From positions 3,034,545 through 3,098,544 of the forward strand of contig OZ241863.1 of the NCBI GenBank assembly GCA_965203055.1: DNA of 64,000 nucleotides, in the 5' to 3' direction. The notes beneath the pieces are model-generated. The model saw nothing but the letters and a program-made list of their open reading frames with translations. It made no database searches and was not told the DNA's origin. Source of the DNA: Spirochaetia bacterium (GTDB taxonomy: Bacteria > Spirochaetota > Spirochaetia > SZUA-6 > Bin103). This document shows, one piece after another, positions 14,845-57,288 of the stretch. A program made the position numbers and the translations under genes. Positions within the stretch are counted from its first letter, which is position 1, and every line of letters starts with the position of its first letter.

Positions 14845-15605
14845 ACCATCGGGTAGAGTCGCGCCGGCGTCCCGCTCAGCCATGCCGGCCGCTGGAGAAC
14901 TGCGGGGGTGACCAAGCTCCTCGGCGTGTCGTCAGGTCCCGTCGCCGCCTGCCGCGGCCGCGCCGTTGGGTTGGCTCTTGAGCTTCTGATACTCCTGCTC
15001 GCCAATTCCGGTCGCCCGCTCGATCAACGACCAGTCGACGCCGGTCCGCAGGAAACCGTCGATCGTCTCCAACCGCCCCTCGCGCTGGCCGTCGCGGTGC
15101 CGCTGTTCGGCAACCGCTCGCATCTCGTTACGCATCTGGTCGCGCATCTGGTCGCGCCCTTCCTGGCGCAGCCGCTCGCCGCTCGTCATCAACTCCCCTC
15201 CTGCCGCTGTGCGGCTCAGTATATCGCCCATCGCCTCGGGCGTGTCTTCAGGCCCCGTCTCCGCGATATAGTGCATGAACATCTTCATGTCGTCCTGACC
15301 GCCGCTTCCTTCCCGCTCCAAGTCGTCCAGCAGCGGCCGCATCCGCGCCCGTGCCTCCCGCACCGCGCGGCTGAAGGCGTGCATCATCGTCAGTTGCAGC
15401 AACCGCGCCCGGACGCTGCCGGCCGCCTGCGCCGGCGACATTTGAGTCTGGTCGAACAGCACGTGCTCGAACCGGGGCAGCCATGGCCAGTCCCGCGTTG
15501 CGGCCGGAAACAGGTCAGCGAACTGCGGGGAGTGCTGCCAGCCGGTGGGACCCTGGTAGAAGACCAGCGGCAGGATCGGGCGCAGGTAGCCGGAATAACG
15601 GGCCG
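14845..15605 (-). repeat. repeat copy A: remnant of an Rpn-family (YhgA-like, transposase_31/PDDEXK_7) element
   Basis: About 95% nucleotide identity to 23115-24190. It encodes only the C-terminal roughly 220 aa of an Rpn protein (YLRPILPLVFYQGPTGWQ...GRLETIDGFLRTGVDWSLIERATGIGEQEYQKL). The nuclease core is absent. Confidence 0.7.
14932..15600 (-). pseudogene. truncated Rpn-family recombination-promoting nuclease/putative transposase (C-terminal fragment)
   Basis: Translation matches the Rpn C-terminal region only. Upstream, in-frame sequence is non-homologous read-through that the ORF track merges into a 624 aa artefact. Confidence 0.65.
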
Positions 15606-15743: not shown

Positions 15744-16859
15744 TCAGGAGGAGTAGGGATCGGCGGCGTCGCGCAGGCCGTCGCCGAGGAAGTTGTAGAG
15801 CAGCACCGTAATCACCACGAAGATGCAGGGGATGAGCAGCCACGGCTGACTCGCCACCGCCTGGAAGTTCTGCGCGTCCTGCAGCAACGTGCCCCAACTC
15901 ACCGCCGGCGGCTGGATGCCGAGCCCCAGAAAGCTCAGCGCGGTTTCGCCCAGGATCATCGCCGGAATCGCCAGCGTCAGCGACACGATGATGTAGCTCA
16001 GGAACGACGGCAGCAGGTGCCCGAAGATGATGGCGCGTTCGGGCGCCGCCGACACCACCGCGGCCATCACGAAGTCCTCCTCCCGCAGGGACAGGAAGCG
16101 GCCGCGCACCACGCGCGCGAGCTGGGTCCAGCCGACCAGCGACAGGATCAGCGTGATGGCGAAGTAGGTGGTGAGCACGCTCCACTGCCGGGGTACCGCC
16201 GCGGCCAGCCCCATCCACAGCGGAATGGTGGGAATGGAGGACAGCAGGTCGACCAGCCGCATCACCACCCGGTCCGCGATGCCGCCAAAGTAGCCGGCCA
16301 GCCCGCCTAGCAGCACTCCCAGAACGGTGCTTACCGCCACCCCCACCAGGCCGATCGACAGGGAGATGCGGGCGGCGTGGAGCACCCGCGAAAACAGATC
16401 GCGCCCCAGCCGGTCGGTACCGAACAGAAACAGGGGCGCCCCGTCTGCGGCTTCCGCGTCCGGCACGAACAGATGCGCGCGCGTCTTGAACAGGCCCCAG
16501 AAGCGGTACTCCTCGCCGGCGCCGAAGAACCGGATCGGGTAGCGCCGCTCGCGGTCGAGCTCGTAGATCTTGCGCATCGTGTAGGGGTGGCGCTCCTGCC
16601 GCAGGCCGTACACGTACGCCCCGCCGGCGCCGCCGGCCAGTCGGATGAGATTCGGCGGCGCGTTCAGGTAGTCGGGAAAGCGCGTGGTCACCCCGTACGG
16701 GGCGACGAAGTCCGCAAACAACGCCGCCGCGTACATGAGCGCCAGGGCGGGGCCCGCCACCAGCGCCAGCCGGTGGCGGCGAAACTTCCACCACATCATG
16801 CGCCACTGCGACGCGACGTAGTAGCGGTCGTCGGCGCCCGCCCGCGCGCGCGTGCTCAC
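15744..16859 (-). CDS. peptide/nickel ABC transporter permease (OppC/DppC-like)
   Basis: 371 aa with multiple TM segments and the EAA-loop region typical of OppC. Its ATGA overlaps the upstream permease. Confidence 0.85.
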   Translation of the reverse strand: MSTRARAGADDRYYVASQWRMMWWKFRRHRLALVAGPALALMYAAALFADFVAPYGVTTRFPDYLNAPPNLIRLAGGAGGAYVYGLRQERHPYTMRKIYELDRERRYPIRFFGAGEEYRFWGLFKTRAHLFVPDAEAADGAPLFLFGTDRLGRDLFSRVLHAARISLSIGLVGVAVSTVLGVLLGGLAGYFGGIADRVVMRLVDLLSSIPTIPLWMGLAAAVPRQWSVLTTYFAITLILSLVGWTQLARVVRGRFLSLREEDFVMAAVVSAAPERAIIFGHLLPSFLSYIIVSLTLAIPAMILGETALSFLGLGIQPPAVSWGTLLQDAQNFQAVASQPWLLIPCIFVVITVLLYNFLGDGLRDAADPYSS

Positions 16860-17854
16860 GACTCGAGGCGATCGAACCGGATGCGGGGATCGACCCAGGC
16901 CAGCACGATGTCCGAGATGAGGTTGCCGACCAGCACCAGGACGCTGAGGATCAGCACGAAGCTGCCCGCCAGGTACATGTCCTGCGCCTGCAGCGCGCCC
17001 AGCAGCACCGGCCCGGTCGTCGGCAGATTGAGCACGATCGAGGTGATGGTCGCGCCGGAGATGATCGCCGGCAGCAGCCAGCCGATGCCGCTGATGATCG
17101 GGTTGACGGCAAGCCGCACCGGATACTTGAACAGCAGCCGGCCTTCACCGACCCCCTTGGCGCGCGCGGTCACCACGTACTGCTTGCGCAGCTCGTCCAG
17201 CAAGGTGCCGCGCATGACGCGGATCAACCCCGCCATCCCCGCGGTCCCGACCACCAGGACCGGCGCCCAGAGCCGTTGCAACATGCTCCACACCCGCGCC
17301 AGACTCCACGGCGCGTCGACGTACTCGGGCGCGAACAACCCGGTAATGGCGACGCCGAAGTAGCGGAACGCAATCCACAGGAGCACCAGCGCGAGCAGGA
17401 AGTTCGGGATCGCCAGCCCCACGAATCCCCAGAAGGTCCAGAAGTAGTCGAAGAAGGAATACTGCCGCACCGCCGAATAGACGCCGATCGGCACCGCCGT
17501 CAGGTAGGTGAAGATCAGGGTCGAGATGGTCACCACCAGCGTCAGTCCGATGCGCTCGCCGATCACGGCGGACACCGGCCGGTCATGGGCGAAGGACCAG
17601 CCGAGGTTGCCGCGCAGCACGATGTTGCGCAGCCACAGCAGGTACCGGGTATGGACCGGCTTGTCCAGGCCGTAGTAGGCGGCGAGATTGGCCACCTGTT
17701 CGTCGGTGACCCGGTTCCCCTGGATCTCCAACTGCAGCATGTACGAGCTGAGATAATCTCCCGGCGGGAGCTCGATGATCGCAAAGCTCACCGCCGAGAT
17801 CAGGAACAGGAGCGGCACGAAGGCCGCCACCCGGCGCGCGACGTATTCAAGCAT
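16856..17854 (-). CDS. peptide/nickel ABC transporter permease (OppB/DppB-like)
   Basis: 333 aa starting MLEYVARRVAAFVPLLFLISAVSFAIIELPPGDYL, a typical OppB N-terminus. The 1240 aa ORF in the track is a read-through artefact. Confidence 0.85.
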   Translation of the reverse strand: MLEYVARRVAAFVPLLFLISAVSFAIIELPPGDYLSSYMLQLEIQGNRVTDEQVANLAAYYGLDKPVHTRYLLWLRNIVLRGNLGWSFAHDRPVSAVIGERIGLTLVVTISTLIFTYLTAVPIGVYSAVRQYSFFDYFWTFWGFVGLAIPNFLLALVLLWIAFRYFGVAITGLFAPEYVDAPWSLARVWSMLQRLWAPVLVVGTAGMAGLIRVMRGTLLDELRKQYVVTARAKGVGEGRLLFKYPVRLAVNPIISGIGWLLPAIISGATITSIVLNLPTTGPVLLGALQAQDMYLAGSFVLILSVLVLVGNLISDIVLAWVDPRIRFDRLES

Positions 17855-17877
17855 GTCCCCGCCGGGGCGCGGCGCGG

Positions 17878-19800
17878 TCAGTTCCCGTAATAGAGCTGCT
17901 CCGCGCTGTAGATCACCCACTGCGCCACGCCCTCGGTAAACACGTTGCGCAGTTGCCGGTTGACGATCAGCACGGTAGCCGGATTGTAGGTCACGTTGAT
18001 CTGCGGGATGGTCTCGAAGAACGTCTGCCGGTAGCGGTCGACGATCTCCTGGTCCCACGGGATTCCGGGACCGATGCCCAGGCCCAGGTCGTACAGCTCC
18101 CGGAACCACGCCGGCGGCTCCTCGCCCTGTTCGCCGCCCGACCGGTACCACTGCCGCCACGGCGGAATGTGGTTGATCAGGTGGTCCTTGGCATGGCCGA
18201 AGGCATGCAGCGTGGTCGCCTCGTTCCACAGCGTGTCGATCTGGTACTGGTTGGCGTTGCGGCGCTCTATGAACAGGCCGATCTCCACCACCCCCAGGGT
18301 GGTATACAGCCCCACCGCGCGGTAATGCTCGACGACCAGCTCGTTGGCCGGCACCGTGTCCGGCAGGTGCGCGGTCACCTCCAGGGCGATCTCGAAGCGC
18401 GACCCGTCGGGCGCCAGACGCCAACCGTCGGCGTCGCGCTGGTCCAGGCCCACCGCATCCAGCAGCCGATTCGCCTCCTCGGGATCGTAGGCGGCGGGAA
18501 TCCACTCCGGCGGCGACGCGAAGCCGTAGTACACCGCGTCGATGATCTCGCCGCGGTCGATCGCCAGGTTCAGCGCTTGGCGGAAGCGCAGGTCGCCGGC
18601 GAGCCGGCGCCACGTCGGGTCCTCGTAGCCGAAGTTGAAGGCGTGCACCACCGGGTTGTAGGCGACCCCGGAGGTGAGCGCCCGGTACCCCTTGTCCTCG
18701 TTTTCGCGGTAGAGCGGCAGGGACGATATCTTCGCCAGCTCGTCGGCCAGGTCGACCTCCCCGGCGATGATCTTGAGGCTGGCGCCCTCCGGACCCTCCA
18801 CCTTGGTGCTGACGATGCGGTCGATGTAGGGAAGCTGATTGCCGGCGGCGTCGACCTTGAAGTAGTAGGGGTTGCGCTCGAACACGGTCTGCGTCGGCGA
18901 GGTGCCGGTCACCACCCACGGATGCAGCACGGGAATGTCGACCACGTCCGGGGTCTTCGCTTCCCAGGGCGTGAGCATCTTGATCTGGAACAGGCGCGGC
19001 CACTCGTCGGCCAGCAGATCGGCGGCCGCGACCTTGGCCGCCAACTCCTCGGCGTCGGCGAAGTTGGCGTGGAACTGGGACAGGTAGTGCCGGGGCTGCA
19101 AGAAGCCGGTGTAGTCCATCCACGGCTTGTCGATTTCGTCCAGGAACCCGGGCGTCGGCGCCGAGAAGGTGATGCGATACGAGTAGTCGTCGATCACTTC
19201 CAGGTCGTAGACGTCCCCGGTGGGGCGCAGCCCGGAGCGGTACTGCCAGCCGACGTTGGGGGTGAGCTGCTCGTTGAGCAGGATCTCCTCGTAATGGAAC
19301 GCCACGTCCGCCGTGGTCAGCGGTTCGCCGTCCGACCAGCGCATGCCGCGGCGCAACTGAAAGGTGAACGTGGTGCCGTCCGGACTGATCTCGTAGCTCT
19401 CGTAGATGTTGCCGGTAAGCGGATGCCCCATGCTGATCCAGCCCGGCCGCGCCAGCAGCGTCTCGATGGTCATGAAGTACATCTCCGGCGCGAAGTTGGG
19501 CGCCAGGTTGATCAGCCGCACGTCGCCGCCGTAGGCGCCGATCGCCAGCTCGTCGAGCATGCCGTCGGGAGCGGCGCTCCGTTCCAGCGTGAGCACCAGC
19601 GGGTTCTCCGGGAGCCGCTCGTTCACCGGGGGCAGTTCGCCGGCGGCCACGCGCGCCGCCAGCAGCGGCGCTTCCTGATAGCCTCCGGCGCCGGTCGCGG
19701 CGCTCATGGGGGCGGCGCCTGCGGACTCTTCCTGACCGGTCGCCGCGGCCAGGACGCTGCCCGCCAGGAGCAGCGCAACTGTCATCAACACTCGATTCAC
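17878..19800 (-). CDS. ABC transporter substrate-binding protein, family 5 (peptide/oligosaccharide)
   Basis: Signal peptide (M)NRVLMTVALLLAGSVLAAA. A GTG at 19800 is preceded by GGAGG; an alternative ATG is at 19785. Family-5 SBP-like length and composition. Confidence 0.8.
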   Translation of the reverse strand: MNRVLMTVALLLAGSVLAAATGQEESAGAAPMSAATGAGGYQEAPLLAARVAAGELPPVNERLPENPLVLTLERSAAPDGMLDELAIGAYGGDVRLINLAPNFAPEMYFMTIETLLARPGWISMGHPLTGNIYESYEISPDGTTFTFQLRRGMRWSDGEPLTTADVAFHYEEILLNEQLTPNVGWQYRSGLRPTGDVYDLEVIDDYSYRITFSAPTPGFLDEIDKPWMDYTGFLQPRHYLSQFHANFADAEELAAKVAAADLLADEWPRLFQIKMLTPWEAKTPDVVDIPVLHPWVVTGTSPTQTVFERNPYYFKVDAAGNQLPYIDRIVSTKVEGPEGASLKIIAGEVDLADELAKISSLPLYRENEDKGYRALTSGVAYNPVVHAFNFGYEDPTWRRLAGDLRFRQALNLAIDRGEIIDAVYYGFASPPEWIPAAYDPEEANRLLDAVGLDQRDADGWRLAPDGSRFEIALEVTAHLPDTVPANELVVEHYRAVGLYTTLGVVEIGLFIERRNANQYQIDTLWNEATTLHAFGHAKDHLINHIPPWRQWYRSGGEQGEEPPAWFRELYDLGLGIGPGIPWDQEIVDRYRQTFFETIPQINVTYNPATVLIVNRQLRNVFTEGVAQWVIYSAEQLYYGN

Positions 19801-23114: not shown

Positions 23115-24190
23115 CCGGACGAGTCGGTCCTGCGCGCCGGCATCCCGCTCAGCCGTGCCGGCGGCTCCTGGTGAACGGCGGGGTGACTGATTTCCTCGGC
23201 GTGTCGTCGTCAGGTCCTGTCGCCGCCCGCCGCGGCCGCGCCGTTGGGTTGGCTCTTGAGCTTCTGATACTCCTGCTCGCCGATCCCGGTCGCCCGCTTG
23301 ATCAACGACCAGTCGACGCCGGTCCGCAGGAAACCGTCGATCATCTCCAGCCGCCCCTCGCGCTGGCCTTCCAGGCGGCCTTCGCGGTGGCCTTCCTGTT
23401 GGCCTTCGCTCCGGCCCTCGCGGTGCCGCCGTTCGGCAACCGCTCGCATCTCGTCGCGCCCTTCCTGGCGCAGCCGCTCGCCGCTCGTCATCAGCTCCCC
23501 TCCTGCCGCCGTGTGGCTCAGTATATCGCCCATCGCCTCGGACGTGTCCTCAGGTCCCGTCTCCGCGATCGGCTCGCCGGTATCGGGATCGATCGGCCCC
23601 CGATCGTAGTCAGGCCATCCGTTCCTGCCTGGGTAGTAGTAGTGGTCGTCATGGCCTGCCACCAACCTGAACGACCCATCTGCGGAAGCGATGCCTTCCA
23701 GATCGGCCAGATCGTCGTGCCAATCTGTATCGTCGAGATCCTCCGGTGGGGGCCGGTCGAGCGGTCGACCGGAGTAGTCGCTGTCTACGGAAGCTTTCTT
23801 CTTGCCCATCCCTTCGCCATCAATAGCCTGTCGATATAGTGCATGAACATCTTCATGTCGTCCTGACCGCCGCTTCCTTCCCGCTCCAAGTCGTCCAGCA
23901 GCGGCCGCATCCGCGCCCGCGCCTCCCGCATCGCGCGGTTGAAGGCGTGCATCATCGTCAGTTGCAGCAACCGCGCCCGGACGCTGCCGGCCGCCTGCGC
24001 CGGCGATATCTGAGTCTGGTCGAAGAGCACGTGCTCGAACCGGGGCAGCCATGGCCAGTCCCGCGTTGCGGCCGGGAACAGGTCAGCGAACTGCGGGGAG
24101 TGCTGCCAGCCGGTGGGCCCCTGGTAGAAGACCAGCGGCAGGATCGGGCGCAGGTAGCCGGCATCCTGGTGGTCCCGGCGGTCGTGCTCC
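23115..24190 (-). repeat. repeat copy B: Rpn-family remnant carrying a 272 bp mini-gene insertion
   Basis: Collinear with copy A at about 95% identity, except for an insertion at 23567-23838 encoding MGKKKASVDSDYSGRPL.... Confidence 0.7.
23210..24190 (-). pseudogene. truncated and interrupted Rpn-family nuclease/putative transposase fragment
   Basis: Same truncation point (YLRPILPLVFYQG) as copy A. The reading frame is disrupted by the 272 bp insertion. Confidence 0.6.
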
Positions 24191-31405: not shown

Positions 31406-31497
31406 CTGTCACCTCCTCGATTGCCGGAGTCTGCGGCCTAGGCAACCACCGGCGCAAGTGCCCGCCGGCGCACTTCCGATTTGTTGGTAGACCCTCG

Positions 31498-32026
31498 GTT
31501 TCAGCGACGGCGCGGGAGCTGGTGGAGCAGGCGTCCGGCAAGAGCAGCCGGCAGGTGATGCAGTTGCTGGCCGAGGTGGACCCGGAGCTGGCGGCGTCGG
31601 CGGATCGGGCGCGGCCCCTGGGCGGCGGGCGCTGGGAACTCAAGGCGGTGATCGACGATGAGTGCCGGCGTGGCTTGGAGCGGCTCAAGGAGCTCCTGTC
31701 CCACGTTGATCCGCACCTGCCGTTGGGGCAGCTCATGGGGCGGCTGGTGCGGGAAGGGCTCGACCGCCACGACCCGGCCCGGCCGCCGCGCGGGCGGCGC
31801 GCCGCGCCGGCCAAAGGAGCCGAGCAAACTTCGGCGGCGAAGACGCGGCGCCTCGGCCGGCAGGCTGCGACGACGGGCACGGCGCGGGCTGCGCCGCCGG
31901 CGCGGACCGAAACTTCGCCAGCGAAGACCGGCGGCGCGACCGGGGCCGCTGCCGCTACGTGGACCGCACCAGCGGGCGCCGCTGCGGCTCCCAACACCTG
32001 CTGCAGATCGATCACGTCGTGCCGTC
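31498..32026 (+). pseudogene. truncated copy of the DUF222/HNH endonuclease element (lacks N-terminus; HNH cut after IDHVVP)
   Basis: Aligns to residues about 165 onward of the 35176 copy (RELVEQASGKSSRQVMQLLAEVDPELAA...). The HNH motif RCRYVDRTSGRRCGSQHLLQIDHVVP sits in a shifted frame and is fused to repeat module R2 at 32027. Confidence 0.6.
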
Positions 32027-32095
32027 ATCTTACACTGGGACTTGGGCTTGGCCGCCAAGCGGCCTGACGCTTACCTACATTTTGGAAATGCGCCC
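32027..32095 (+). repeat. repeat module R2 (copy 1): tcatcttacactgggacttgggcttggccgccaagcggcctgacgcttacct...ttggaaatgcgccc
   Basis: Near-identical to 36580-36648. Contains the palindrome GCTTGGC-C-GCCAAGC. Fused to the truncated HNH copy. Confidence 0.75.
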
Positions 32096-32255
32096 CATGA
32101 CAGACGTCCGCTTGCCGTCAAGGCATCAAGCGAGCACGCTGATTCGGTTTGACGCCCAGACGGGCGGTGAGTCGATGCCGCGCTTGGGCCTTGAACCTTG
32201 AACAGACCACTTGCCCATACGTACCAAACGTGAGATATTGATACGTAGCAGCGTC

Positions 32256-32519
32256 ATGAGCACGAAACTCACCCTGAGCGTCAACGCTACGATCGTCCAA
32301 CGGGCGAAGGAGTTGGCGAGACGGCGACGAACGAGCCTCTCCGGACTGGTTGAGGAGTATCTCCGATTTGCCAGCGCCGGCCTTGATGAGCGGCCCGCCG
32401 TCAGCAGCCGAGTTCAGGCGGTTGCCGAATCACTGCCGATGCCGCCGGACGCTACCTACGATCGCTTGCAGGAGCAGTACCTGCGGGAAAAGCTACTCGG
32501 TGCGGAAGATTCTGCTTGA
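32256..32519 (+). CDS. vapB: VapB-like antitoxin (RHH-type)
   Basis: MSTKLTLSVNATIVQRAKELARRRRTSLSGLVEEYL. It overlaps the downstream PIN gene by 20 nt. Confidence 0.65.
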   Translation: MSTKLTLSVNATIVQRAKELARRRRTSLSGLVEEYLRFASAGLDERPAVSSRVQAVAESLPMPPDATYDRLQEQYLREKLLGAEDSA

Positions 32520-32964
32520 TTCCGACGTCATTCTGGACCTGTTCGTCTCGCGCGAACCGCATCACACGGTCGCCTTGCATTTCTTCTCGTGCATCGATCT
32601 CGAGCGAGACACCATCAGCGCAACGGCGTCGCCGGTGGCTATGGCCAACGTCGCCTACGTGTTGGCCAAGTTGAAGAATCAGGCATTTGCGGTGGGTAAA
32701 CTGCGCGAACTCAGAACCATGATCGGGGTGTCTCCCATCAACCAAACGGTCGTGGACCGTGCCCTGGCACGTCCGCATCGTGATTTCGAAGATGCCCTGC
32801 AACGAGAATGCGCGCTGGAGAATGGGATCGAGATTCTCGTGACTCGCAACACCCGCCACTATTCCAAGACCGACGTCGCTATCCTCTCACCGGCTGACTT
32901 CTTGCAGCTTCACGGCGCCGCGCTGGCGCTCATAGGCGGCGGCGGACCGGACAGACCGACCTAA
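32500..32964 (+). CDS. vapC: VapC PIN-domain toxin
   Basis: GTG start. The N-terminus KILLDSDVILDLF is a PIN signature. Confidence 0.7.
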   Translation: MRKILLDSDVILDLFVSREPHHTVALHFFSCIDLERDTISATASPVAMANVAYVLAKLKNQAFAVGKLRELRTMIGVSPINQTVVDRALARPHRDFEDALQRECALENGIEILVTRNTRHYSKTDVAILSPADFLQLHGAALALIGGGGPDRPT

Positions 32965-34930
32965 TCCGCCAGCCGAACCAGAAGCTGCTTGCCCTCCAGC
33001 GTTTGGCGCGCCCAATACAGGTTCTGGTATTGATCGTAGCCGCCCTCGCTCTCTGCCAACCTTGCCGCGCCGGTCGCGGTGGTACCGCCGGACGGCGCTG
33101 CCCCGAAGGTCACGGTTGGAGCAGTCGTGTAACCGCTCCCACGGTCCGTGATCGTCACCGACGCTACGCGCAGCGCCGCAGTGCCGGCGGCCGTGGCGCC
33201 GGCACCCGGCGCCGCGCCAAAGGTCACGGTTGGGGCAGTGGTGTAGCCGCTCCCACGGTTCATGACATTCACCGACGTGACGCGCAGCGCCGCAGTGCCG
33301 GCGGCCGTGGTGCCGCCGCCCGGCGCCGCGCCAAAGGTCACGGTTGGGGCAGTCGCGTAGCCGCTCCCGCGGTTCGTGATCGTCACCGACGCTACGCGCA
33401 GCGCCGCAGTGCCGGCGGCCGTGGTGCCGCCGCCCGGCGCCGCGCCAAAGGTCACGGTTGGGGCAGTCGCGTAGCCGCTCCCACGGTTCGTGAGCGTCAC
33501 CGACGTGACGCCGGTTTGCAGCACTGCGGTGCCGGTGGCCGTGGTGCCGCCGGACGGCGCCGCTCCGAAGGTCACGGTTGGGGCAGAGGTGTAGCCGGCC
33601 CCCGCGTTCGTGAGCGTCACTCCCTCTACTCTGGTCGTCCGTAACGTCGCGGTGGCGCTCGCGCCGGTGCCCCCTCCTCCCGAAAACGATACGGTTGGGG
33701 CAGAGGTGTAGCCGCTCCCCCGGTTCAATAGGATTATGTTCACCACACTACCGGAACTTATCGTCGCCCATCCGATTGCCCGGGTGCCACCGGCGGCCTG
33801 CGGAGCGCTGAACGTTACGGTTGGACCAGACGTGTAGCCGTTCCCCCCGCTCGTGAGCGTCACCGTCCCTACTTCTGATCGCAGCGTTGCGGTGCCGGTC
33901 GCCGTGGTGCCGCCGGACGGCGCTGCTCCGAACGTCACGGTGGGAGCGGACGTGTAGCCGTTCCCCCGGTTCCCGATCGTCACTGACGCGACGCCGCCGG
34001 GCCCCACCGCGGTGCCGGTGGCCGCGGTGCCGCCGGACGGCGGTGCGCTGAACGTCACGCTGGGAACCGACGCGTAGCCGCTTCCCGCAGTCCCGACCGT
34101 CACCGCGTCGACGGCGCCCGCCGCGGCGCCGGTCGCCGTGGTGCCGCCGGACGGCGGCGCGCTGAACGTCACGGTAGGGACGGAAGTGTAGCCGCTTCCT
34201 GCGGTCCCGACCGTCACGGCATCGACGGCGCCCGCCGCGGCGCCGGTCGCCGTGGTGCCGCCGGACGGCGGCGCACTGAACGTCACGGTGGGAGCGGATG
34301 CATATCCGCTTCCTGCGGTCCCGACCGTCACGGCATCGACCGAGGCCACCGCGGTGCCGGTTGCCGTGGTGCCGCCGGACGGCGCCGCCTCGAACGTCAC
34401 GCCGGGAACGGACGCATAGCCGCTCCCCGGGTTCGCTATCGTGACCGCCTGAACCGTGCCGACGGCGCCCGGCTCGATCGTGTCGGAGCCCGACTGATCC
34501 GGGGCGGTGAGCGCCAGTACCACTGCGCCCGCCCGGACTTCCGGGGTGACCGTCCACTCCGCGCCGGTGAGGTCGGACGCGAAGACCGGCTTGGCGCTCG
34601 TGGTCGTGAACGGCAGCGGGTGCCCGCCGATCGACACCTGCACCTTCTCGCCCTCGCCGCCGGTGATCCGCTCCCAGGCATACGGCGCGGAACGGTTGGT
34701 CGTTGCGCTCAGCAGGTCCGCGCCGTCACCAAAGTCAGCCGCGCTGATCGTCCAGCTCTTCTCGGCCGGCTGGGCCGGCTGCGGGGTTGGCGGCGGCTCG
34801 CTCGGCGGTTTACCCCCCCCCCTTGGGCCGGGTCGGCGGTCGCGGCGGGCGGGCCCGCCGCCTGCGCGCAGGCCATCAGCATGGCGATACCGGCGGCCAG
34901 CAACAGCGATACCAGCGACGCTCTGCCCAA
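32961..34930 (-). CDS. tandem-repeat surface lipoprotein with a G10 homopolymer frameshift between signal peptide and mature domain (candidate phase-variable; currently out of frame)
   Basis: Lipoprotein-like signal (TTG start with GGAGGA 5 nt upstream; ...LVSLLLAAGIAMLMAC) in the frame of ORF 34709..35065. Mature part (KPPSEPPPTPQP... then about 16 repeats of 29 aa, GSGY(A/T)SAPTVTF(G/S)A(A/P)PSGGTTATG) in the frame of ORF 32961..35123. The two frames meet at C10 on the + strand, 34813-34822. 11 or 8 G would restore the frame. Confidence 0.6.
33070..34450 (-). repeat. array of 87 bp (29 codon) tandem repeats inside the lipoprotein gene
   Basis: Units around 33100-33520 are near-identical at the nucleotide level (...ccaaaggtcacggttggggcagtcgcgtagccgctccc...). 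Units toward the 5' end are more degenerate. Confidence 0.75.
34813..34822 (-). repeat. homopolymeric G10 (C10 on + strand) tract at the signal-peptide/mature-domain junction
   Basis: Read directly: tacccccccccc ttggg. The two reading frames of the lipoprotein meet here. Confidence 0.9.
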
Positions 34931-35175
34931 GATTATCCTCCTGCCGGGCGGTTGGTCCCAGGCGGCGGCACGGTAGCACGCGCTCCCCAAGCTGTCCATC
35001 CCCACATCGCTCGCTCGCTGCGGGGCGCACTTCCAATTTGCTGGTACCGATCCCGGCAGCAGCATCTGACGGAACGTCCAGCCGCTTGGAAATGCGCCGC
35101 CGAGTCACGCCCGCAGGTGGCATCTTCCGGGCCGAATAACTTGACTCAAGTAGTTTCCATGATTATACTTATATC

Positions 35176-36560
35176 ATGTACAATCAGGCTTCCGACGAGG
35201 CCGTCACCACTACCGTATCAGCCCTCTCAGACGACCGCCTGCTGGAGCGGACCAAGGAACTTTCCGGCATCGAACACCATCTCGAAGTGGTCGTGATCGA
35301 CCACCTGCGCGAGATTCAGAAGCGCCGCCTGTATCTGCGCCGCGGGTTCTCGAGCCTGTTCGATTACGCGGTGCGCGAGTTGGGTTACAGCGACGCTGCG
35401 GCGTGGCGGCGCATCAAGGCGATGCGGCTCTGCGCGGAGGTCGAGGGCGTGCGTGAGCGCCTGCAGAATGGCTCGATGACGCTGAACGCGGCGGCGCAGT
35501 TGCAGAACGCCTTCGACCGGCAGGAGCGCAAGAAGGAACGGGCGGCGCGTAGCGCGCCGGGCGGTGTCGGGTGCGGGGCTGCCGCTCAGTCGCAGAACGG
35601 CTCGGCGCCGCCGCGGTCGGCGGAGCGGAAGCCGGCGCCGGTGCTGGATCCGGAGGCGCGGCGGGAGCTGGTGGAGCAGGCGTCCGGCAAGAGCAGCCGG
35701 GAGGTGATGCAGTTGCTGGCCGAGGTGGACCCGGAGCTGGCGGCGCCGGCGGATCGGGTGCGGGCGCTGGGCGGCGGGCACTGGGAGCTCAAGGCGGTGA
35801 TCGACGATGAGTGCCGGCGCGGCTTGGAGCGGCTGAAGGGCCTCCTGTCCCACGTCGATCCGCACCTGACGATGGGGCAGCTCACGGCGCGGCTGGTGCG
35901 GGAAGGGCTCGACCGTCACGACCCGGCCCGGCCGCCGCGCGGGCGGCGCGCCGCGCCGGCCAAAGGCGCCGAGCAAACTTCGGCGCCGAAGACGCAGGCG
36001 GCCTCGGCTCGCGGCGCTGCCTCGGCAACGAAGCAGGAGGCCGGCGCGGACAGCGCCGCTCCTTCGGCGGCGAGGTATCGGCTCAGGCGGCGGCGCAGCC
36101 GGGAGACGAAGCCGCTGACCGCTCGGACACTTCGGCAGCGAAGCCGGCGGGCGACGCAACTTCGGCGCCGAAGACGCGGCGCCTCGGCCGGCCGGCTGCG
36201 GTGGCGTGCGTGGCGCGGGCTGCGCCGCCGGCGCGGACCGAAACTTCGGAAGCTAAGGCCGGCGGCGCGACCGGCCGCGCCATCCCGGCGGCGGTCAAGC
36301 GCGAGGTCTGGCGGCGCGATCGGGGCCGCTGCCGCTACGTGGACCGCACCAGCGGGCGCCGCTGCGGCTCCCAACACCTGCTGCAGATCGATCACGTGGT
36401 GCCGTATGCCTGCGGCGGCGGCGCCGAGCCGAACAATCTCCGCCTGCTGTGCGCCGCCCATCACCGCTACCGCCACGCCGGCGCCGGGTTCGGCCGCCCC
36501 GGCGAGGATCGGCAGGCGACGGTTCCGTTCAGCCCTACTGCCGAAAGCGTAGACCGGTGA
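35176..36560 (+). pseudogene. DUF222 N-terminal domain / HNH endonuclease (REP13E12-like family); frameshifted between N-domain and HNH
   Basis: N-terminal DUF222-like region (SALSDDRLLERTKELSGIEHHLEVVVIDHLREIQKRRLY) in frame 1 (35176..36552). HNH motif (CRYVDRTSGRRCGSQHLLQIDHVVPYACGGGAEPNNLRLLCAAHHRY) in a second frame (35811..36560). Candidate promoter TTGACT-N17-TATACT about 35 bp upstream. Confidence 0.65.
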
Positions 36561-36579
36561 TCAAGATCGCCGAGAAACG

Positions 36580-36800
36580 TCATCTTACACTGGGACTTGG
36601 GCTTGGCCGCCAAGCGGCCTGACGCTTACCTGCATTTGGAAATGCGCCCAGTGCCCGCCGGCGCGCAGCCCGACATATTGACTAGTGATACCATAATGAA
36701 TACCATATGGCAACGGATATTACTATAGATCGTGTCGGACTCGTTGTGGTGCCGAGAACAGTTCTGTGACCGGGGAACTTGGTTCCTGGTACCGTTCCGG
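36580..36800 (+). repeat. composite repeat patch: R2 copy 2, then a GTGCCCGCCGGCGC palindromic module, then a degenerate copy of the AbrB-antitoxin promoter and 5' coding region
   Basis: 36655-36800 aligns with 56884-57060 (gtgcccgccggcgcgcagcc..ttgact..gataccat..gaataccatat..attac.atagatcg...). The AbrB-like frame is broken by stop codons. Confidence 0.65.
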
Positions 36801-36833
36801 CACCAATAGAAGAATTCCCCTGAGGAGGCGGTT

Positions 36834-37043
36834 ATGATGGGCGGTAATAAAATCAGAGAGATGATCGAATTACTTTCTCACTTTTTTTACTCTGATGAAG
36901 ATGGTTTTGATATTATTGTGGATAGAAATACTTTAACTTTCAGTGATCTTCGGCGGACTGATACTTTTTGTATAAAGACCAAACAAAATTTTGAGATTAC
37001 ACTAGATGAAAGATATGGGCTGCACTATAGACCAAGAAAATAG
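36834..37043 (+). CDS. AT-rich 69 aa orphan ORF (hypothetical)
   Basis: Strong RBS GAGGAGG 7 nt before ATGATG. Local GC is about 33% in a roughly 70% GC context. No recognisable domain. Confidence 0.4.
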   Translation: MMGGNKIREMIELLSHFFYSDEDGFDIIVDRNTLTFSDLRRTDTFCIKTKQNFEITLDERYGLHYRPRK

Positions 37044-37195
37044 AGAGCTAACTGCAAGAGCTATATCGCTTCGCTCGCTTCCGGATGACGGGCATTGCAG
37101 TGGTGACGCCGTGATCCACCCAACAGCGTGCTCACCACCCCGCTACCGGCCGTGTTTGCTACCGGTGACCCCAACGCAGGAGTAGAGGAGCTGGC

Positions 37196-42512: not shown

Positions 42513-43640
42513 TTACTGGTAGGGATCGGCGGCGTCGCGCAGGCCGTCGCCGACGAAGCTGAACATCAGCACGGCAACGACCACGAAGATCCCCGGAATG
42601 AGCTGCCAGGAGCGCTGCGCCACCGCCGCCAGGTCCTGCGCTTCCTTCAGCAACACCCCCCAACTGACCGCCGGCGGCTGCATGCCGAGGCCGAGAAAGC
42701 TGAGCGAGGTTTCGCCGAGGATGGTCTGCGGAATCGCCAGGGTGACGTGGACCACCAGGTAGCTGATGAAGTTGGGCAGCAGGTGGCGCACGATGGTCGC
42801 GGTTTCGGTGGAGCCGGCGATCTTGGCGGCGCGGATGAAGTCCTCCTCGCGCAGCGACAGCAGCTTGCCGCGCACGATCCGCGCCAGGCCGGCCCAGCCC
42901 ACCACCGCCAGCACGATGGTGATCGCGAAGTAGGTCTGGGTCACGCTCCAGTCGCGCGGTATGGCCGCGGCCAGGGCCATCCACAGCGGGATGGTGGGAA
43001 TCGACAGCAGCACCTCGATGATGCGTTGAATCACCTCATCCACGGCGCCGCCGAACATGCCCGAGACGCCGCCGATCAGGCAGCCGAGCACGAAGCTCAC
43101 GAACACCCCGCCGAAGCCGATCAGCAGCGAGATGCGCGCGCCGCTGATGGTGCGCGAGTAGACGTCCCGCCCCAGACGGTCGGTCCCGAACAGAAACACC
43201 GGCGCCCCCTCGGTGCCGAACAGACGCACCCGCGCCGGGATGAATCCCAGCAGCTCGTAGCGCTCGGTGCGCACGAAGAAGCGGATCGGGAAGCGCGCCG
43301 CGCGATCCTCGGTGAACTCCACCCGGAAGGTCTCGCGGTTCACGTTGCGTTCCAGGGCGTGCACGAAGGGACCCTGCAGGCCGGCGCCGGGAGCGAACCA
43401 GCGCACCGGCGTGGGGCGGGCGTTTTCGAATCCCTCGAAGCGGGCGAGGGTGTCGTAGGGCGAGAAGAACTCGGCGAACAGCGCCACGCCGTACATCACC
43501 GCCAGCACCGCGATGCCGGTCAGGGCCAGGCGGTGGCGGCGAAAGCGCCACCAGATCAGTTGCCCCTGGGAGGCGTATTCCAGCCGCTCCAGGCGGCGCG
43601 CGCGGCGCAGGTCGGCGCGCGCCGCCGGCGCCTCAGCCAT
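42513..43640 (-). CDS. peptide ABC transporter permease (OppC-like)
   Basis: 375 aa paralogous to 15744..16859. Overlaps the upstream permease. Confidence 0.85.
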   Translation of the reverse strand: MAEAPAARADLRRARRLERLEYASQGQLIWWRFRRHRLALTGIAVLAVMYGVALFAEFFSPYDTLARFEGFENARPTPVRWFAPGAGLQGPFVHALERNVNRETFRVEFTEDRAARFPIRFFVRTERYELLGFIPARVRLFGTEGAPVFLFGTDRLGRDVYSRTISGARISLLIGFGGVFVSFVLGCLIGGVSGMFGGAVDEVIQRIIEVLLSIPTIPLWMALAAAIPRDWSVTQTYFAITIVLAVVGWAGLARIVRGKLLSLREEDFIRAAKIAGSTETATIVRHLLPNFISYLVVHVTLAIPQTILGETSLSFLGLGMQPPAVSWGVLLKEAQDLAAVAQRSWQLIPGIFVVVAVLMFSFVGDGLRDAADPYQ

Positions 43641-44631
43641 CGCCGGCCCCCAGGCGGATGCGCGGGTCGAGCCAGGCCAGGCAGATGTCGGAGATCAGGG
43701 TGCCGATCACGGTGAGCGTGCCGAGGATCAGCACGATCGCCCCGGCCAGGAACATGTCCTGCGCCAGGGTGGCGCGCAGCAGCACCGGCCCGATGGTCTG
43801 CAGGTTGAGCACGATGCCGACGATCACCTGCCCGGAGATGAGCGACGGCAGCAGCCAGCCGATGGTGCTGAACACCGGATTCATGGCGATCCGGATCGGG
43901 TACTTGAACAGCAGATTGCGCTCGCTCACCCCCTTGGCGCGCGCCGTGATCACGTACTGCTTGCGCAGCTCATCCAGCAGGGTGCCGCGCAGCACCCGGA
44001 TCAGCCCCGCGGTGCCGGCCAGCCCGATGATGATCACCGGCAGCCACACGTTCTTGAGCAGGTCCAGCAGCTTGGCCCACGACCACGGGGCATCCACGAA
44101 CTCCAGCGAGAACAGGCCGGTAATGGCCCAGCCGGTGACGTCGTAGATCACCCAGCTCGTCACCAGCGCCACCAGGAACTGCGGCATCGACAGGCCGATG
44201 AAGCCGATCAGGGTGAACAGGTAGTCGAACCAAGTGTACTGGTTGGTGGCCGACACCACCGCGATCGGAATCGCGAGCAGCCAGACGAAGAACAGACTGG
44301 AGATGGAGATCGCCAGGGTGGTGGGCAGGCGCTCGGCGATCACCTCGTTGACCCGCTTCTCCCACTGGAACGACCAGCCGAGGTCGCCCTGCAGCACGAT
44401 CCCGGTCATCCAGCGGAAGTACTGCACGTGGATTGGCCGGTCCAGCCCGAACTGGGCCGTGAGGTTGGCCACTTCGGCGTCGTCGAGCTCCGCGCCCGAC
44501 TCGCGCAGGGCGGCGATGTAGGTGGTCAGGTAGTCGCCCGGCGGAAGCTGGATCACGGCGAAGGTCAGCACCGAGATCAGCAGCAGCAGCGGGACCATGA
44601 TGGTCAGGCGGCGCGTGATGAAGCGAACCAC
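43633..44631 (-). CDS. peptide ABC transporter permease (OppB-like)
   Basis: 332 aa starting MVRFITRRLTIMVPLLLLISVLTFAVIQLPPGDYL. Confidence 0.85.
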   Translation of the reverse strand: MVRFITRRLTIMVPLLLLISVLTFAVIQLPPGDYLTTYIAALRESGAELDDAEVANLTAQFGLDRPIHVQYFRWMTGIVLQGDLGWSFQWEKRVNEVIAERLPTTLAISISSLFFVWLLAIPIAVVSATNQYTWFDYLFTLIGFIGLSMPQFLVALVTSWVIYDVTGWAITGLFSLEFVDAPWSWAKLLDLLKNVWLPVIIIGLAGTAGLIRVLRGTLLDELRKQYVITARAKGVSERNLLFKYPIRIAMNPVFSTIGWLLPSLISGQVIVGIVLNLQTIGPVLLRATLAQDMFLAGAIVLILGTLTVIGTLISDICLAWLDPRIRLGAGDG

Positions 44632-44756
44632 GTTGGTTTTGAGTTACCGGCCTCCGCCCGGCGGCAGCCGCGCGGAGGCAGCTTCACGCACGGGGCGGGC
44701 GCGCGGCGCGCGCCCGCCCCGCATCACGGTGCCGTCGAGATGCGGCAGGATGCCTC

Positions 44757-46706
44757 CTACTCGAAGAAGAACTGCTCGGCCGCGAACCAGGTGGCCGACG
44801 ACTTGCCGGACACCGCCAGATTGCCCAGGTTCTCGGGAATGATCACCGGCCCCACCACGTCGCGCGCCAGCGGGAACATCGGGACGTGGGTGTTCATCCA
44901 GGTGCTGAACGCGTCCACCGCCTGCATCGCCTGGTCGGAGGTGGGCAGCTCCGCGGTGAAGGTGCCGTACAGATCGTACAGTTCCTTGATCCAGACCGGC
45001 GGTTCCTCGCCCTGCGCGCCGCCGGTTCCCAGCCAGCTATGCCAGCCCTGGCCCCAGCGCGACCGCGTGTTGGGCAGGTAGTCCACCATCAGGATCGGCC
45101 AGTTCACGTCGTCCAGCCAGGACAGCGTGGCGTAGAGCTGGCCGGCGTCGCGGCGCTCGATCCAGAGTTGGCGCGCGATCAGCTTCATCGGCGTGCGGAT
45201 GCCCACCGCTTCCAGGTCGGCGGTGATCAACTCGCCCATCTTCTCCCAGTCGGCGGCGCCTTCGATAATCTCGAACACGAGCTGGAACTGCTCGCCGTCG
45301 GGGCCGAGGCGGAATCCGTCGGCGTCCTTCCGGTCCAGGCCGATCTCGTCCAGGATGCGGTTCGCCTCCGCCGGGTCGTAGTCCGGCTTGATCCACGGGT
45401 TGGGCTCGCCCAGGCCGAGGAACATCACGTCGATGATGTTCTGGTAGTTGATCGCCTTGTTGACGGCATGCCGGAAGCGCGGGTTCCACACCACCTCGCG
45501 CCACGTCTCGTCGGGATTCAGGTAGTTCAGAAACAGCGCCACCGGAGCGTTGTGGTACACCAGGTTGGTGTACACCCGGTATCCGCCGCGCTCCTCGTTC
45601 TCCTTGAGCAGCGGCACCTTGTCGTGGGCGATCAGGTCGCGGTTCAGGTTGACGTCGCCGGCGATCACCTTGAGCGGGATGTTCTCCGCCTTGGCCACGA
45701 TCACCGACTCGTAGCGGTCGACGTAGGGGAGCTGATTGCCGGCCGCGTCCACCTTGTAGTAGTAGGGGTTGCGCTCCATCACCATCAGGTCCTGCGGCGA
45801 GTCGACCCGCACCCACGGTCCCAGGGTGGGGAAGCCGGCGGCCTCGCTGCGCATGTTCTCGTGCCACAGAATGTCCTTCTGCAGGAACAGGCGGTGCCAT
45901 TCATCGCTCTCCAGGCCCGCTTCCCGGAGGTTGGCGGCCAGGGTGGCGGCGTCGGCGTGGTTCTTGTGGTACTGCATCAGCACGTGGCGCGGCTTGAGCA
46001 GCTCGTTGTAACCGCCCCACAGCGCCCCTACGCCCATCGCGATCACGAACCGGCCGTACTGCCGGTCGAAGCTGATGCGGAAGGCGTGATCGTCGACGAT
46101 CTCGAACGTCATCGGCGTGCCGTCGGGCTGGCCCGCGGCCTTGTAGCGCGCAGGCAGCGCCGGCGTCAGGGCGTCGACGAACAACACGTCCTCTACCGCG
46201 AAGCGCATGTCCTCGGTGGTGATCGGCGTGCCGTCCGACCACTTCAACCCGCGCCGCAGGGTGAAGGTGAACACCCGATTGTCGGCGTCCACCTCGAAGC
46301 TCTCCGCCACGTTGCCCATGATCGGCGCCACGGTATGCGCCGGGCTCATCAGGAAGTGCTCCATGGCCGCGTCGCGCAGGTTCCAGTCCAGCTCGGGATT
46401 GGCGGTCACCGAACGCAGCGTGCCGCCGTACTTGCCAATCTCGACCGTGAGATCCTCCGCCCGCACCATGGTGCCGGTGGTGACCACCAGCGGATTTTCG
46501 GGCAGCCGCTCCTCTACCGGCGGCAGTTCGCCCGCCGCCACCATCGCGGCCAGGGCCGGCGCCTCGCCGAACGCGCCGCGTTCCATGGTCGCCGCGCCGG
46601 TGGCCGCGGCCGCGCCCTCCTCGCCCTCGCCGCCGGCCCAGGCGACCAGCGCCGGCGCCGCGCCGAGCAGCGCTGCGCATACGATCCGAATGAACGATCG
46701 TGACAT
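44757..46706 (-). CDS. ABC transporter substrate-binding protein, family 5
   Basis: Signal peptide MSRSFIRIVCAALLGAAPALVAWAG. Paralogous to 17878..19800. Confidence 0.8.
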   Translation of the reverse strand: MSRSFIRIVCAALLGAAPALVAWAGGEGEEGAAAATGAATMERGAFGEAPALAAMVAAGELPPVEERLPENPLVVTTGTMVRAEDLTVEIGKYGGTLRSVTANPELDWNLRDAAMEHFLMSPAHTVAPIMGNVAESFEVDADNRVFTFTLRRGLKWSDGTPITTEDMRFAVEDVLFVDALTPALPARYKAAGQPDGTPMTFEIVDDHAFRISFDRQYGRFVIAMGVGALWGGYNELLKPRHVLMQYHKNHADAATLAANLREAGLESDEWHRLFLQKDILWHENMRSEAAGFPTLGPWVRVDSPQDLMVMERNPYYYKVDAAGNQLPYVDRYESVIVAKAENIPLKVIAGDVNLNRDLIAHDKVPLLKENEERGGYRVYTNLVYHNAPVALFLNYLNPDETWREVVWNPRFRHAVNKAINYQNIIDVMFLGLGEPNPWIKPDYDPAEANRILDEIGLDRKDADGFRLGPDGEQFQLVFEIIEGAADWEKMGELITADLEAVGIRTPMKLIARQLWIERRDAGQLYATLSWLDDVNWPILMVDYLPNTRSRWGQGWHSWLGTGGAQGEEPPVWIKELYDLYGTFTAELPTSDQAMQAVDAFSTWMNTHVPMFPLARDVVGPVIIPENLGNLAVSGKSSATWFAAEQFFFE

Positions 46707-56146: not shown

Positions 56147-56166
56147 ATGGCGAAGATCGATGGCCC
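56061..56166 (+). repeat. about 95 bp direct duplication (copy 1) of the AlbA_2-gene 3' end plus the mod 5' start; copy 2 is at 57221-57306
   Basis: gccgcagccagcgctaccgg...ccgctacctgagacgaa(c/t)ggaggagac(c/g)ccgtagATGgcgaagatcga occurs at both sites. Copy 1 ends the AlbA_2 gene and copy 2 immediately precedes mod #2. Confidence 0.8.
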
Positions 56167-56950
56167 GCGTACTATAGGTGCCACGGCGTCGCGCAGGCTC
56201 TCAGCCCCTCGCGTGGGATCGACGTTGCCGGTCCGTATCCGCCAAGGCCAGTTCCTCGACGGCGGCCATAGCACGCTCAGGACCGCTGGCTCGACCAGGG
56301 CCTGCGCGGGCGCGCAGCGGTCGGCGACGGCTTGCGCGGCGGCAGCTTCTCGCCGGTGTACGCGTCCCACTCGTTGCCGTCAGCGTCGGCCATGATAAAG
56401 CGGTCCTCGCGGCGCACCCTGCCGCTCGCGAGCGACTCCCGGACCCCTTCCGGCGTCAGCTCCCCGAGCGGGCGCCCGGAGTAGTCGCTGTCTACGGCTT
56501 GGGTTTCGTCGGCTTCTTCTTTCTGCTTGCCCATCTGCGACTCATCAGGAGCTTGTCATTGGCTTGCGCGATCGGCACGAACTCGTCATACGGCCACTGC
56601 CTGACCCGCAACACCCTGTTCTTTGTGGGTGAGCATCTTGTCGAGCTGCGCCTTTAGGACCGATGACCCGCTCCGCCACGCAATATACTGCGCATACGCC
56701 CGCGCCCACAACTCGGCCTCGTGGGTCAGGTAGGTATCGCCCTGCAGGAGCGCATACCTCTTGCTCTGCAGGATCGCCTTATGACCGCCTGCATCGTCCG
56801 AGTCGACTCCCGCTTAGACTCGAGGTCGTCTATTTCGGCGACGCCCTTCTTTGACATGCCCGACGTCAGTACGCGCCGGCGCGAGTGCCCGCCGGCGCGC
56901 AGCCTGGATGCCTGTTTGACTGATGATACCATGGCGAATACCATATAGCC

Positions 56951-57220
56951 GTGGTCATTACCATAGATCGCGACGGGCGCGTCGTAGTGCCGAAGCAGTT
57001 CCGTGACCGCTTCAACTTGGTTGCTGGTACGCAGTTGGAGATCGAAGCCGCAGGTGACGGGCTGAAGCTTCGTAAGGTCGTAAGCGAGCCGACGCTGGTT
57101 CGGAAGAAAGGGTTCCTGGTGCATCACGGCACTGCTCGTCCCGACATCGATATCGTCGAGTTCATCCGTGCCGAGCGCGACGCCCGCAGCCGTCATATTG
57201 CCACGGACACCACGGATTGA
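56951..57220 (+). CDS. AbrB/MazE/SpoVT-family antitoxin-like DNA-binding protein
   Basis: The N-terminus (V)ITIDRDGRVVVPKQFRDRFNLVAGTQLEIE is the swapped-hairpin AbrB signature. GTG start. An upstream TTGACT and three ACCATA/ATACCAT repeats suggest an autoregulated promoter. Confidence 0.65.
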   Translation: MVITIDRDGRVVVPKQFRDRFNLVAGTQLEIEAAGDGLKLRKVVSEPTLVRKKGFLVHHGTARPDIDIVEFIRAERDARSRHIATDTTD

Positions 57221-57288
57221 TGCGCAAGCCGCAGCCAGCGCTACCGGCCGGCCGCCGCTACCTGAGACGAATGGAGGAGACGCCGTAG

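Follow-up and report, generated by a model that had tools for sequence, protein, structure and literature searches.

The stretch of DNA analysed here, referred to below as the window, is 64,000 nucleotides long (contig OZ241863.1 of a Spirochaetia bacterium, positions 3,034,545 to 3,098,544) and contains two related HNH endonuclease genes, copy A and copy B, set among short non-coding modules. We propose, with moderate confidence, that both genes are selfish, multi-copy HNH cassettes, that the sub-family to which they belong is carried in an element bounded by terminal inverted repeats (TIRs), that the short modules are termini, subterminal DNA and gene scraps of this element, and that break-repair copying combined with a transposase provided in trans would account for its spread. 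The observations from which this proposal starts are the multi-copy dispersal of the cassette, the precise ends of one sub-family, selection on the protein, the decay of copies and strain rearrangements at the ends.

A dispersed HNH cassette and its two copies in the window

Homologues of the gene were abundant, with more than 2000 in the first search and many distinct paralogues on single chromosomes; the family comprises 8733 clusters at 50% identity (E < 1e-30). The 4.1-Mb chromosome OZ241907.1, labelled as a Spirochaetia metagenome-assembled genome (MAG), had 20 loci in a genome scan. Intactness was assessed by tblastn frame analysis at 19 of the 20, and 15 full-length copies were counted, nine in a single frame and six broken, together with at least seven fragments. 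At unrelated loci the repeat unit starts between 51 and 130 nt before the ATG, a span that includes the promoter, and ends about 20 nt past the stop codon. The promoter, first described from copy A as a textbook TTGACT-N17-TATACT arrangement and recovered there by a promoter scan, is conserved upstream of 15 paralogues in OZ241907.1. The cassette protein of about 450 codons consists of an N-terminal helical domain, a middle helical domain, a disordered linker and a C-terminal HNH nuclease domain, and an alignment of 50 sequences showed no variation at the catalytic H, N and H residues or at the Cys residues. Across 12 paralogues dN/dS was 0.17 for the N-terminal domain, 0.37 for the middle domain, 0.33 for the HNH domain and 0.89 for the linker, and the protein domains are under purifying selection. 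A functional protein that is kept while many single copies decay is the pattern expected of a selfish element. The gene with its own promoter is a dispersed, multi-copy HNH cassette, which we suggest is selfish and which is apparently mobile; the initial annotation had likewise read the HNH genes as copies of a repeated mobile element with its own promoter, and this reading is supported.

Copies A and B were the only members of the HNH family found in the window by tblastn. Self-comparison of the window gave aligned segments of 90-98% identity, with 31512-31846 matching 35661-35995 (94%), 31827-31943 matching 36158-36274 (90%) and 31930-32025 matching 36310-36405 (98%), which upholds the annotated relationship between the two copies and rules out that they are unrelated genes. 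The frameshift annotated in copy A was also confirmed: residues 1-301 of the relative P0001 align in one frame and residues 302-452 in another, with the join at nucleotide 36072, and comparison with intact relatives such as P0001 places the loss of a single A (GCGAAGGTA to GCGAGGTA) at about 36072. The same frameshift is found in an independent assembly with 99% identity, L080 (L-numbers denote loci compared with the window), and is absent from L079, L094, L001 and L002; copy A of L079 is broken too, at a different position. Programmed -1 frameshifting in copy A was considered and rejected, the intact relatives having one more A.

Copy B begins at about residue 165 of the family protein in the P0001 alignment, in agreement with the earlier description of a gene lacking its first 165 or so codons. 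Its 182-bp deletion falls between identical 20-bp direct repeats (copy A 35976-35995 and 36158-36177), its 35-bp deletion corresponds to copy A 36275-36309, and its 172-bp deletion (copy A 36406-36577) fuses IDHVVP to the element's own 3' flank. The HNH motif of copy B had been thought to be cut after IDHVVP by an inserted copy of the 3' module, R2; because the junction was made by the 172-bp deletion, R2 was not the inserter. In L080, copy B carries a different deletion. Copy A is a newly inactivated gene with a 1-nt deletion, and copy B an old one eroded by deletions.

Ends of the carrier element and carried fragments

The AT-rich 13-mer TTGGAAATGCGCC is present as exact copies at 32082, 35086 and 36636 and, inverted and with one or two mismatches, at 31468 and about 35025, a count that was reached in none of 100 shuffles. 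It marks the ends of one sub-family, which includes copies A and B of the window, L001-L003, L013, L079, L080, L094, L096-L098 and L102. The right end, ...CATTTGGAAATGCGCC(C), is identical in eight element copies, each with a flank of its own (copies A and B of the window, copy A of L079, and L001, L013, L094, L096 and L098), L003 keeping only a remnant of this end, and the left end, GGGGCGCACTTCCAATTTG..., recurs at several loci. Immediately outside both ends of L003 there is a perfect 8-bp direct repeat, CACGCGGA, and L096 has a near match to an 8-bp duplication (7/8 with an indel). In L013 the entire element is flipped with respect to the same surface-protein gene, and its junction again falls at the GCGAGCGAGCG site. 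Because the same ends meet different flanks, form an inverted pair and are accompanied by the duplication in L003, we take the left module and the R2 end to be imperfect terminal inverted repeats of a carrier of about 1.6-1.8 kb in this one sub-family. The repetition of R2 that was annotated at the outset was borne out (Table 1), and the idea of a composite mobile unit with conserved ends holds for the sub-family in the window; the other paralogues are without TTGGAAATGCGCC. A target repeat in the window (10-15 nt) could be drawn across copies A and B together only, and no target duplication was found around copy A alone or copy B alone. When all copies were examined for duplications of at least 8 bp, the only ones found were an imperfect one of 44 nt at L001 and the 13-nt motif itself.

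Outside these ends lies a palindromic module with the core GTGCCCGCCGGCGC, exact at 31458, 36651 and 56885; with one mismatch allowed, five matches occur in the window, a number reached in none of 100 shuffles, so the repeated nature of the module stands. The same is true of the related modules reported elsewhere in the window, 35024-35046 matching 31467-31489 at 21/23 positions and 36650-36670 being the same as 56884-56904 (21/21). The similarity continues from 36650-36792 to 56884-57030 (76%), the latter comprising the 5' end of a MazE/AbrB-type gene with its promoter. The sequence AGTGCCCGCC(GGCGC) borders copy B on the left and copy A on the right, in each case immediately beyond the element end, and runs uninterrupted at 56884, a pattern that would fit a target duplication produced when a 5.2-kb composite block, made up of copy B, a DUF6364-PIN gene pair, a surface-protein gene and copy A, moved as one. 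This composite-transposon reading is only possible, because L079 (97% identical) is without the 532-bp block 36650-37181 and has 48 unrelated nt in its place. The indel, which begins exactly at the element's right end, may have gone in either direction and cannot serve to demonstrate the earlier suggestion that the AbrB fragment was seeded by remnants of the element. After the AbrB-type piece, the 36650-37181 block continues as a low-GC stretch with a 69-codon open reading frame that has no Pfam match. Around the intact MazE/AbrB gene, an imperfect direct repeat of about 90 nt (56071-56160 and 57222-57302, 85%) flanks a 1.06-kb block, which looks like a target-duplicating insertion or the result of paralogous-site recombination because the repeat includes the start of an N6_N4 DNA methylase (MAKID...).

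The remaining modules appear, from their resemblance to known genes, to be subterminal sequence and gene scraps from earlier sites, namely a 5' piece of hsdS and a 3' piece of a methylase gene. An intact hsdS lies directly downstream of the HNH gene in L095 and apparently also in L012 and L005. Within the methylase-like piece there is a 150-nt indel between strains at 35051-35055. The left module forms a hairpin at 35017-35100 (minus-strand fold z-score -4.8), which was rejected as a functional RNA, its spacing shifting by 150 nt in L080 and by about 200 nt in L096; because the passenger remnant varies in length among close relatives, the hairpin is best seen as a by-product of deletion. Two further features were noted at the borders of HNH copies. 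At 32150-32185, between copy B and the DUF6364-PIN pair, there is another gene scrap, a short piece similar to the 3' end of a gene of which L001 has an intact version (L001 700-760; ...AGIKAQRGIDF, stop). In L103, two paralogous AAA_14/DUF4143 genes enclose an HNH copy, and their start regions recur as an imperfect 42-nt repeat (1840-1880 and 3620-3665) on both sides of the element.

Table 1. Coordinates of the element, its ends and its flanking modules in the window
Feature	Position	Strand	Remarks
Palindromic module AGTGCCCGCCGGCGC outside the left end of copy B	31457..31471	+	Identical to 36650-36664 and 56884-56898; flanking or target DNA, candidate target-site duplication
Left terminal inverted repeat of copy B (GGCGCACTTCCGATTTGTTGGTA)	31467..31489	+	23 nt, 78% complementary to 32072-32094; 21/23 match to 35024-35046
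Copy B, eroded HNH gene remnant	31512..32025	+	About 164 codons missing at the N-terminus; compared with copy A, 182, 35 and 172 bp deleted internally
R2 of copy B, 3' subterminal	32023..32095	+	97% to 36578-36649; ends in right repeat TTGGAAATGCGCC at 32082-32094
Left terminal inverted repeat of copy A (GGGGCGCACTTCCAATTTGCTGG...)	35019..35046	+	Inverted motif at 35024-35036; same end next to different flanks in L003, L096, L097 and L102
Remnant of passenger DNA within the carrier, apparently from a methylase-like gene (3' end)	35047..35085	+	150 nt longer in the 99% strain L080; also in L002, L003, L094 and L096
Internal direct copy of TTGGAAATGCGCC	35086..35098	+	Makes the hairpin-like left module with 35024-35036
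Promoter of copy A and family, sigma-70-type TTGACT-N17-TATACT	35141..35169	+	Promoter scan
Copy A, HNH endonuclease gene	35176..36560	+	1 nt lost at about 36072; DNA-binding-like helical domain at the N-terminus, then middle domain, disordered linker and HNH domain
Linker palindromes of copy A, CTTCG-N4-CGAAG	35978-35991, 36130-36143, 36160-36173	+	Span 35978..36173
Conserved 3' tail of the cassette (GATCAAGATCGCCGAGA)	36561..36581	+	Resembles a fragment of the 5' part of hsdS
R2 of copy A, 3' subterminal, with right terminal repeat at 36636-36648	36578..36649	+	Homology to all other copies ends exactly at 36649
Flanking block: palindromic module, then truncated MazE/AbrB promoter and first codons	36650..36792	+	Paralogue of 56884-57030; within the 532-bp indel
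Unoccupied paralogous palindromic module	56884..56904	+	Upstream of intact MazE/AbrB gene 56951-57220

Possible routes of spread

One explanation for the data is that the nuclease makes breaks whose repair would copy the cassette into new sites, at times with neighbouring DNA, and that the TIR-bounded carrier would be moved by a transposase acting in trans. Break repair that takes in neighbouring DNA would explain both the carried fragments and the imperfect long repeats that flank some copies (44 nt at L001 and 42 nt at L103). Several findings weigh against this account. The carrier accounts for one sub-family only, and at L004-L014, which make up most copies, no inverted repeats and no duplications of at least 8 bp were detected; the target duplication in L003 is the only perfect one seen. 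No transposase that would match the inverted repeats was encountered, the genome not having been searched for one, and the element itself encodes the HNH protein only. Look-ups of neighbouring proteins for an empty orthologous site gave nothing or only occupied sites. The internal direct copy of TTGGAAATGCGCC is harder to reconcile with a simple TIR model than with a site-specific or circle-junction one, such as L103 would suggest. The assemblies are, to judge by their record and contig names, apparently long-read metagenomes, and some of the frameshifts may be errors. At the left end of L103 the order is R2 tail, motif and leader, which hints at a circular or tandem intermediate.

This arrangement bears on a second possibility, that an autonomous TIR element uses the HNH protein as its own transposase or recombinase, the N-terminal domain recognizing the TTGGAAATGCGCC ends and the HNH domain cutting there. 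The absence of any other protein from the element would be accounted for in this way, as would the precision of the ends at eight loci, the inversion of the element at one site, and the likeness to a circle or tandem junction that is shown by the L103 left end together with the three copies of the motif. However, most paralogues lack the motif entirely, and transposition needs strand transfer, a reaction that HNH nucleases are, to our knowledge, not known to catalyse. Target duplications of 8 bp, as in L003, are moreover typical of DDE transposases. We regard an HNH transposase as unlikely, and favour a nuclease that is copied through repair and a carrier moved in trans.

The family could also be an ordinary host defence nuclease, a McrA-like type IV restriction enzyme or similar, with paralogues that arose by gene duplication and were kept for the benefit of the host. 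Relatives, abundant in soil Acidobacteriota, are named 'McrA' by one source (JGI), the HNH domain resembles those of McrA and TagI, copies adjoin restriction-modification and toxin-antitoxin genes, and the protein is under purifying selection. Host benefit would not readily explain 15 full-length copies and at least seven fragments at unrelated loci of a single chromosome, with the same promoter, sharp boundaries and 6/15 broken, nor an element that is inverted in place between genomes, nor the existence of inverted repeats and a target duplication. A role in host defence as the origin of this pattern seems to us distinctly improbable, and the dispersal is better accommodated by a selfish cassette.

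It is still harder to view R2, the left module and the palindromic module as independent small repeats, such as miniature inverted-repeat transposable elements (MITEs), REP-like sequences or small RNA genes, that lie near HNH genes by chance. The modules are short and non-coding, and the left module does form the minus-strand hairpin described above, but with a spacing that varies between strains. A conserved RNA structure had been envisaged for R2, and none emerged: R2 gave fold z-scores of -0.5 and -0.2, and there was no Rfam match at E up to 1. As an independent repeat R2 was likewise rejected, an R2 20-mer giving five matches in a metagenome collection with no extended similarity, as expected by chance. 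Every copy of R2 or the motif in the window and in about 100 further loci abuts an HNH cassette, a sample that is biased in that nearly all loci were reached via HNH homologues or genes beside the window copies; the modules were seen at HNH element ends or in flanking DNA and not as free-standing repeats. Chance association of such repeats with HNH genes is, in our view, very improbable. Finally, copies A and B are 4 kb apart in the same orientation and have the same ends, but local segmental duplication and decay without mobility can be given next to no weight, as the cassette occurs at many unlinked loci in several genomes and the DNA between the copies is not duplicated.

Linker palindromes, relatives and other features

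The linker carries in-frame palindromes, CTTCG-N4-CGAAG, at two to six per gene in nearly all full-length copies of the clade (L023 has none), and they are present even in paralogues with only about 50% protein identity. The palindrome reads xCT TCG GCN NCG AAG and encodes T/P/A-S-A-A/P-K. In addition to the three in copy A (Table 1), a fourth at 36063-36075 was destroyed by the frameshift. There were 124 palindromes within the gene regions of 41 loci, and outside those regions they were seen only in linker fragments of the same gene. The first codon was NCT in 91/94 palindrome peptides, compared with 4-12% in the rest of the same genes, and the Ser codon was TCG in 93/94, compared with 32% in the rest, the paralogues counted being non-independent samples. 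The palindromes are thus conserved at synonymous sites, and because the linker is near-neutral at the protein level (dN/dS 0.89), the constraint appears to lie on the nucleotides. No linker palindrome was present in Acidobacteriota, in Oligoflexia or in the two genuine DUF222 genes checked. The linker is where deletions and the ends of fragments concentrate.

Dimeric helix-turn-helix (HTH) proteins, for example KorB and ParB, bind palindromic operators, and by analogy it is a natural guess that a dimeric HTH protein may bind the 14-bp palindrome. The N-terminal helical domain of the family protein is predicted to have a ParB/KorB-like fold that is remotely DUF222-like; in the AlphaFold model (mean pLDDT 68.6) the N-terminal, middle and HNH domains are confident and linker residues 257-368 are disordered. 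A bolder and rather doubtful extension is that the linker palindromes are binding or cleavage sites of the family's own ParB/KorB-like HTH-HNH protein, so that each copy would be a nuclease target and linker breaks would set off gene conversion as well as the duplication and truncation of copies. If true, this would amount to self-targeting spread and could also explain repeats of the REP13E12 type. Candidate recognition sites for the nuclease are CTTCGGCGCCGAAG, the TTGGAAATGCGCC ends and the promoter palindrome ACTTGACTCAAGT.

The genes had been annotated as DUF222-HNH proteins of the REP13E12 type, an assignment that can be kept in part. Pfam analysis of repaired copy A returned only HNH (PF01844, E 6.8e-6, 26.6 bits against a cut-off of 21.4). 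DUF222 (PF02720) was not matched by any of eight family members scanned (at E 0.01 for repaired copy A, E 10 for its N-terminal and middle segments and for P0001, and E 1 for six distant members), and genuine DUF222 controls score 80-87 bits with the Pfam model. When the family profile was compared with 26 aligned genuine DUF222 proteins by hhalign, the whole length aligned with 97.4% probability (E 9e-12, 305 columns); for single domains the probability was 69.8% (E 4e-5) for the N-terminal and 2% for the middle domain, and with a single sequence the HNH domain alone aligned. As there is profile-profile similarity yet no Pfam match, the family is probably a remote relative of DUF222-HNH proteins with the same architecture, and not a Pfam-level member. 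Among plasmids, the search for relatives yielded short HNH proteins only.

Multi-copy DUF222-HNH genes such as REP13E12 of Mycobacterium tuberculosis have been known since 1999, with function and spread undefined (PMC13061034), and these repeats are described as a gene-conversion hotspot without a defined function or mobility mechanism (PMC13061034, PMC10589994). The present family is like REP13E12 of Mycobacterium and other Actinomycetota in being an approximately 1.4-kb repeat whose product has a helical domain at the N-terminus and an HNH domain at the C-terminus, and in having several dispersed copies per genome, some split by frameshifts. It differs in failing the Pfam DUF222 test, in its phylum (Spirochaetia MAG records), in its conserved own promoter and shorter protein, and in having linker palindromes that are conserved at the nucleotide level and one sub-family between inverted repeats.

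Other mobile systems share some of these features. As in free-standing HNH homing endonuclease genes of the phage type, there is a single selfish nuclease gene with its own promoter, and adjoining DNA seems to move along with it, much as flanks are co-converted; homing endonuclease genes, however, normally occupy one homologous site per genome, whereas the present family occupies 20 or more unrelated ones, and no cleavage site was recognized. MITE-like non-autonomous TIR elements resemble the carrier in having imperfect inverted repeats of about 20-27 nt, an 8-bp duplication (seen once, in L003), internal gene fragments and deletion derivatives, and differ in that the end motif occurs once more inside the carrier, most cassette copies lie outside any carrier and no matching transposase was seen. 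Unlike the IscB/OMEGA systems of IS200/IS605 elements, the family has no RuvC domain, and Rfam shows no guide-RNA family nearby; IscB (NF040563) was rejected as an identity for the protein, the NCBIfam match being weak, at 22.7 bits against a cut-off of 175, and confined to the HNH part of the model (positions 179-238).

Other repeats were noted in the window. The surface-protein-like gene between copies B and A (32961-34913, minus strand) has tandem repeats of 114-120 nt (GSGYTSAPTVTF...) and no Pfam match. A run of 10 C near its 5' end (about 34817-34826) is longer in the L013 orthologue and could reflect phase variation or a long-read assembly error. Duplications relate 14860-15596 to 23133-24164 and 15753-18885 to 42519-45782, one pair at 83-97% identity and the longer gene cluster at about 66-68%. 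At 55787-55926, tandem 12-nt repeats (ACCGGGGAAGTC and variants) encode (TGEV/TGDV)n within a gene; the protein that it specifies carries Schlafen AlbA_2, HATPase_c_4 and Fic-like C-terminal domains. At 5270-6920 an extended 117-nt repeat array (60-88% identity) probably encodes a repeat protein on the minus strand.

For annotation, it follows from the proposed structure that the short modules would be recorded as element ends and gene scraps, and not as RNA genes or independent repeats. The precise ends of the carrier and the array of palindromes in a linker whose protein sequence varies offer testable candidates for the DNA sites of the nuclease. With 20 or more copies per genome, intact, broken and fragmentary, and with strain differences at the ends, this lineage provides a natural experiment on how such an HNH gene may spread and decay.

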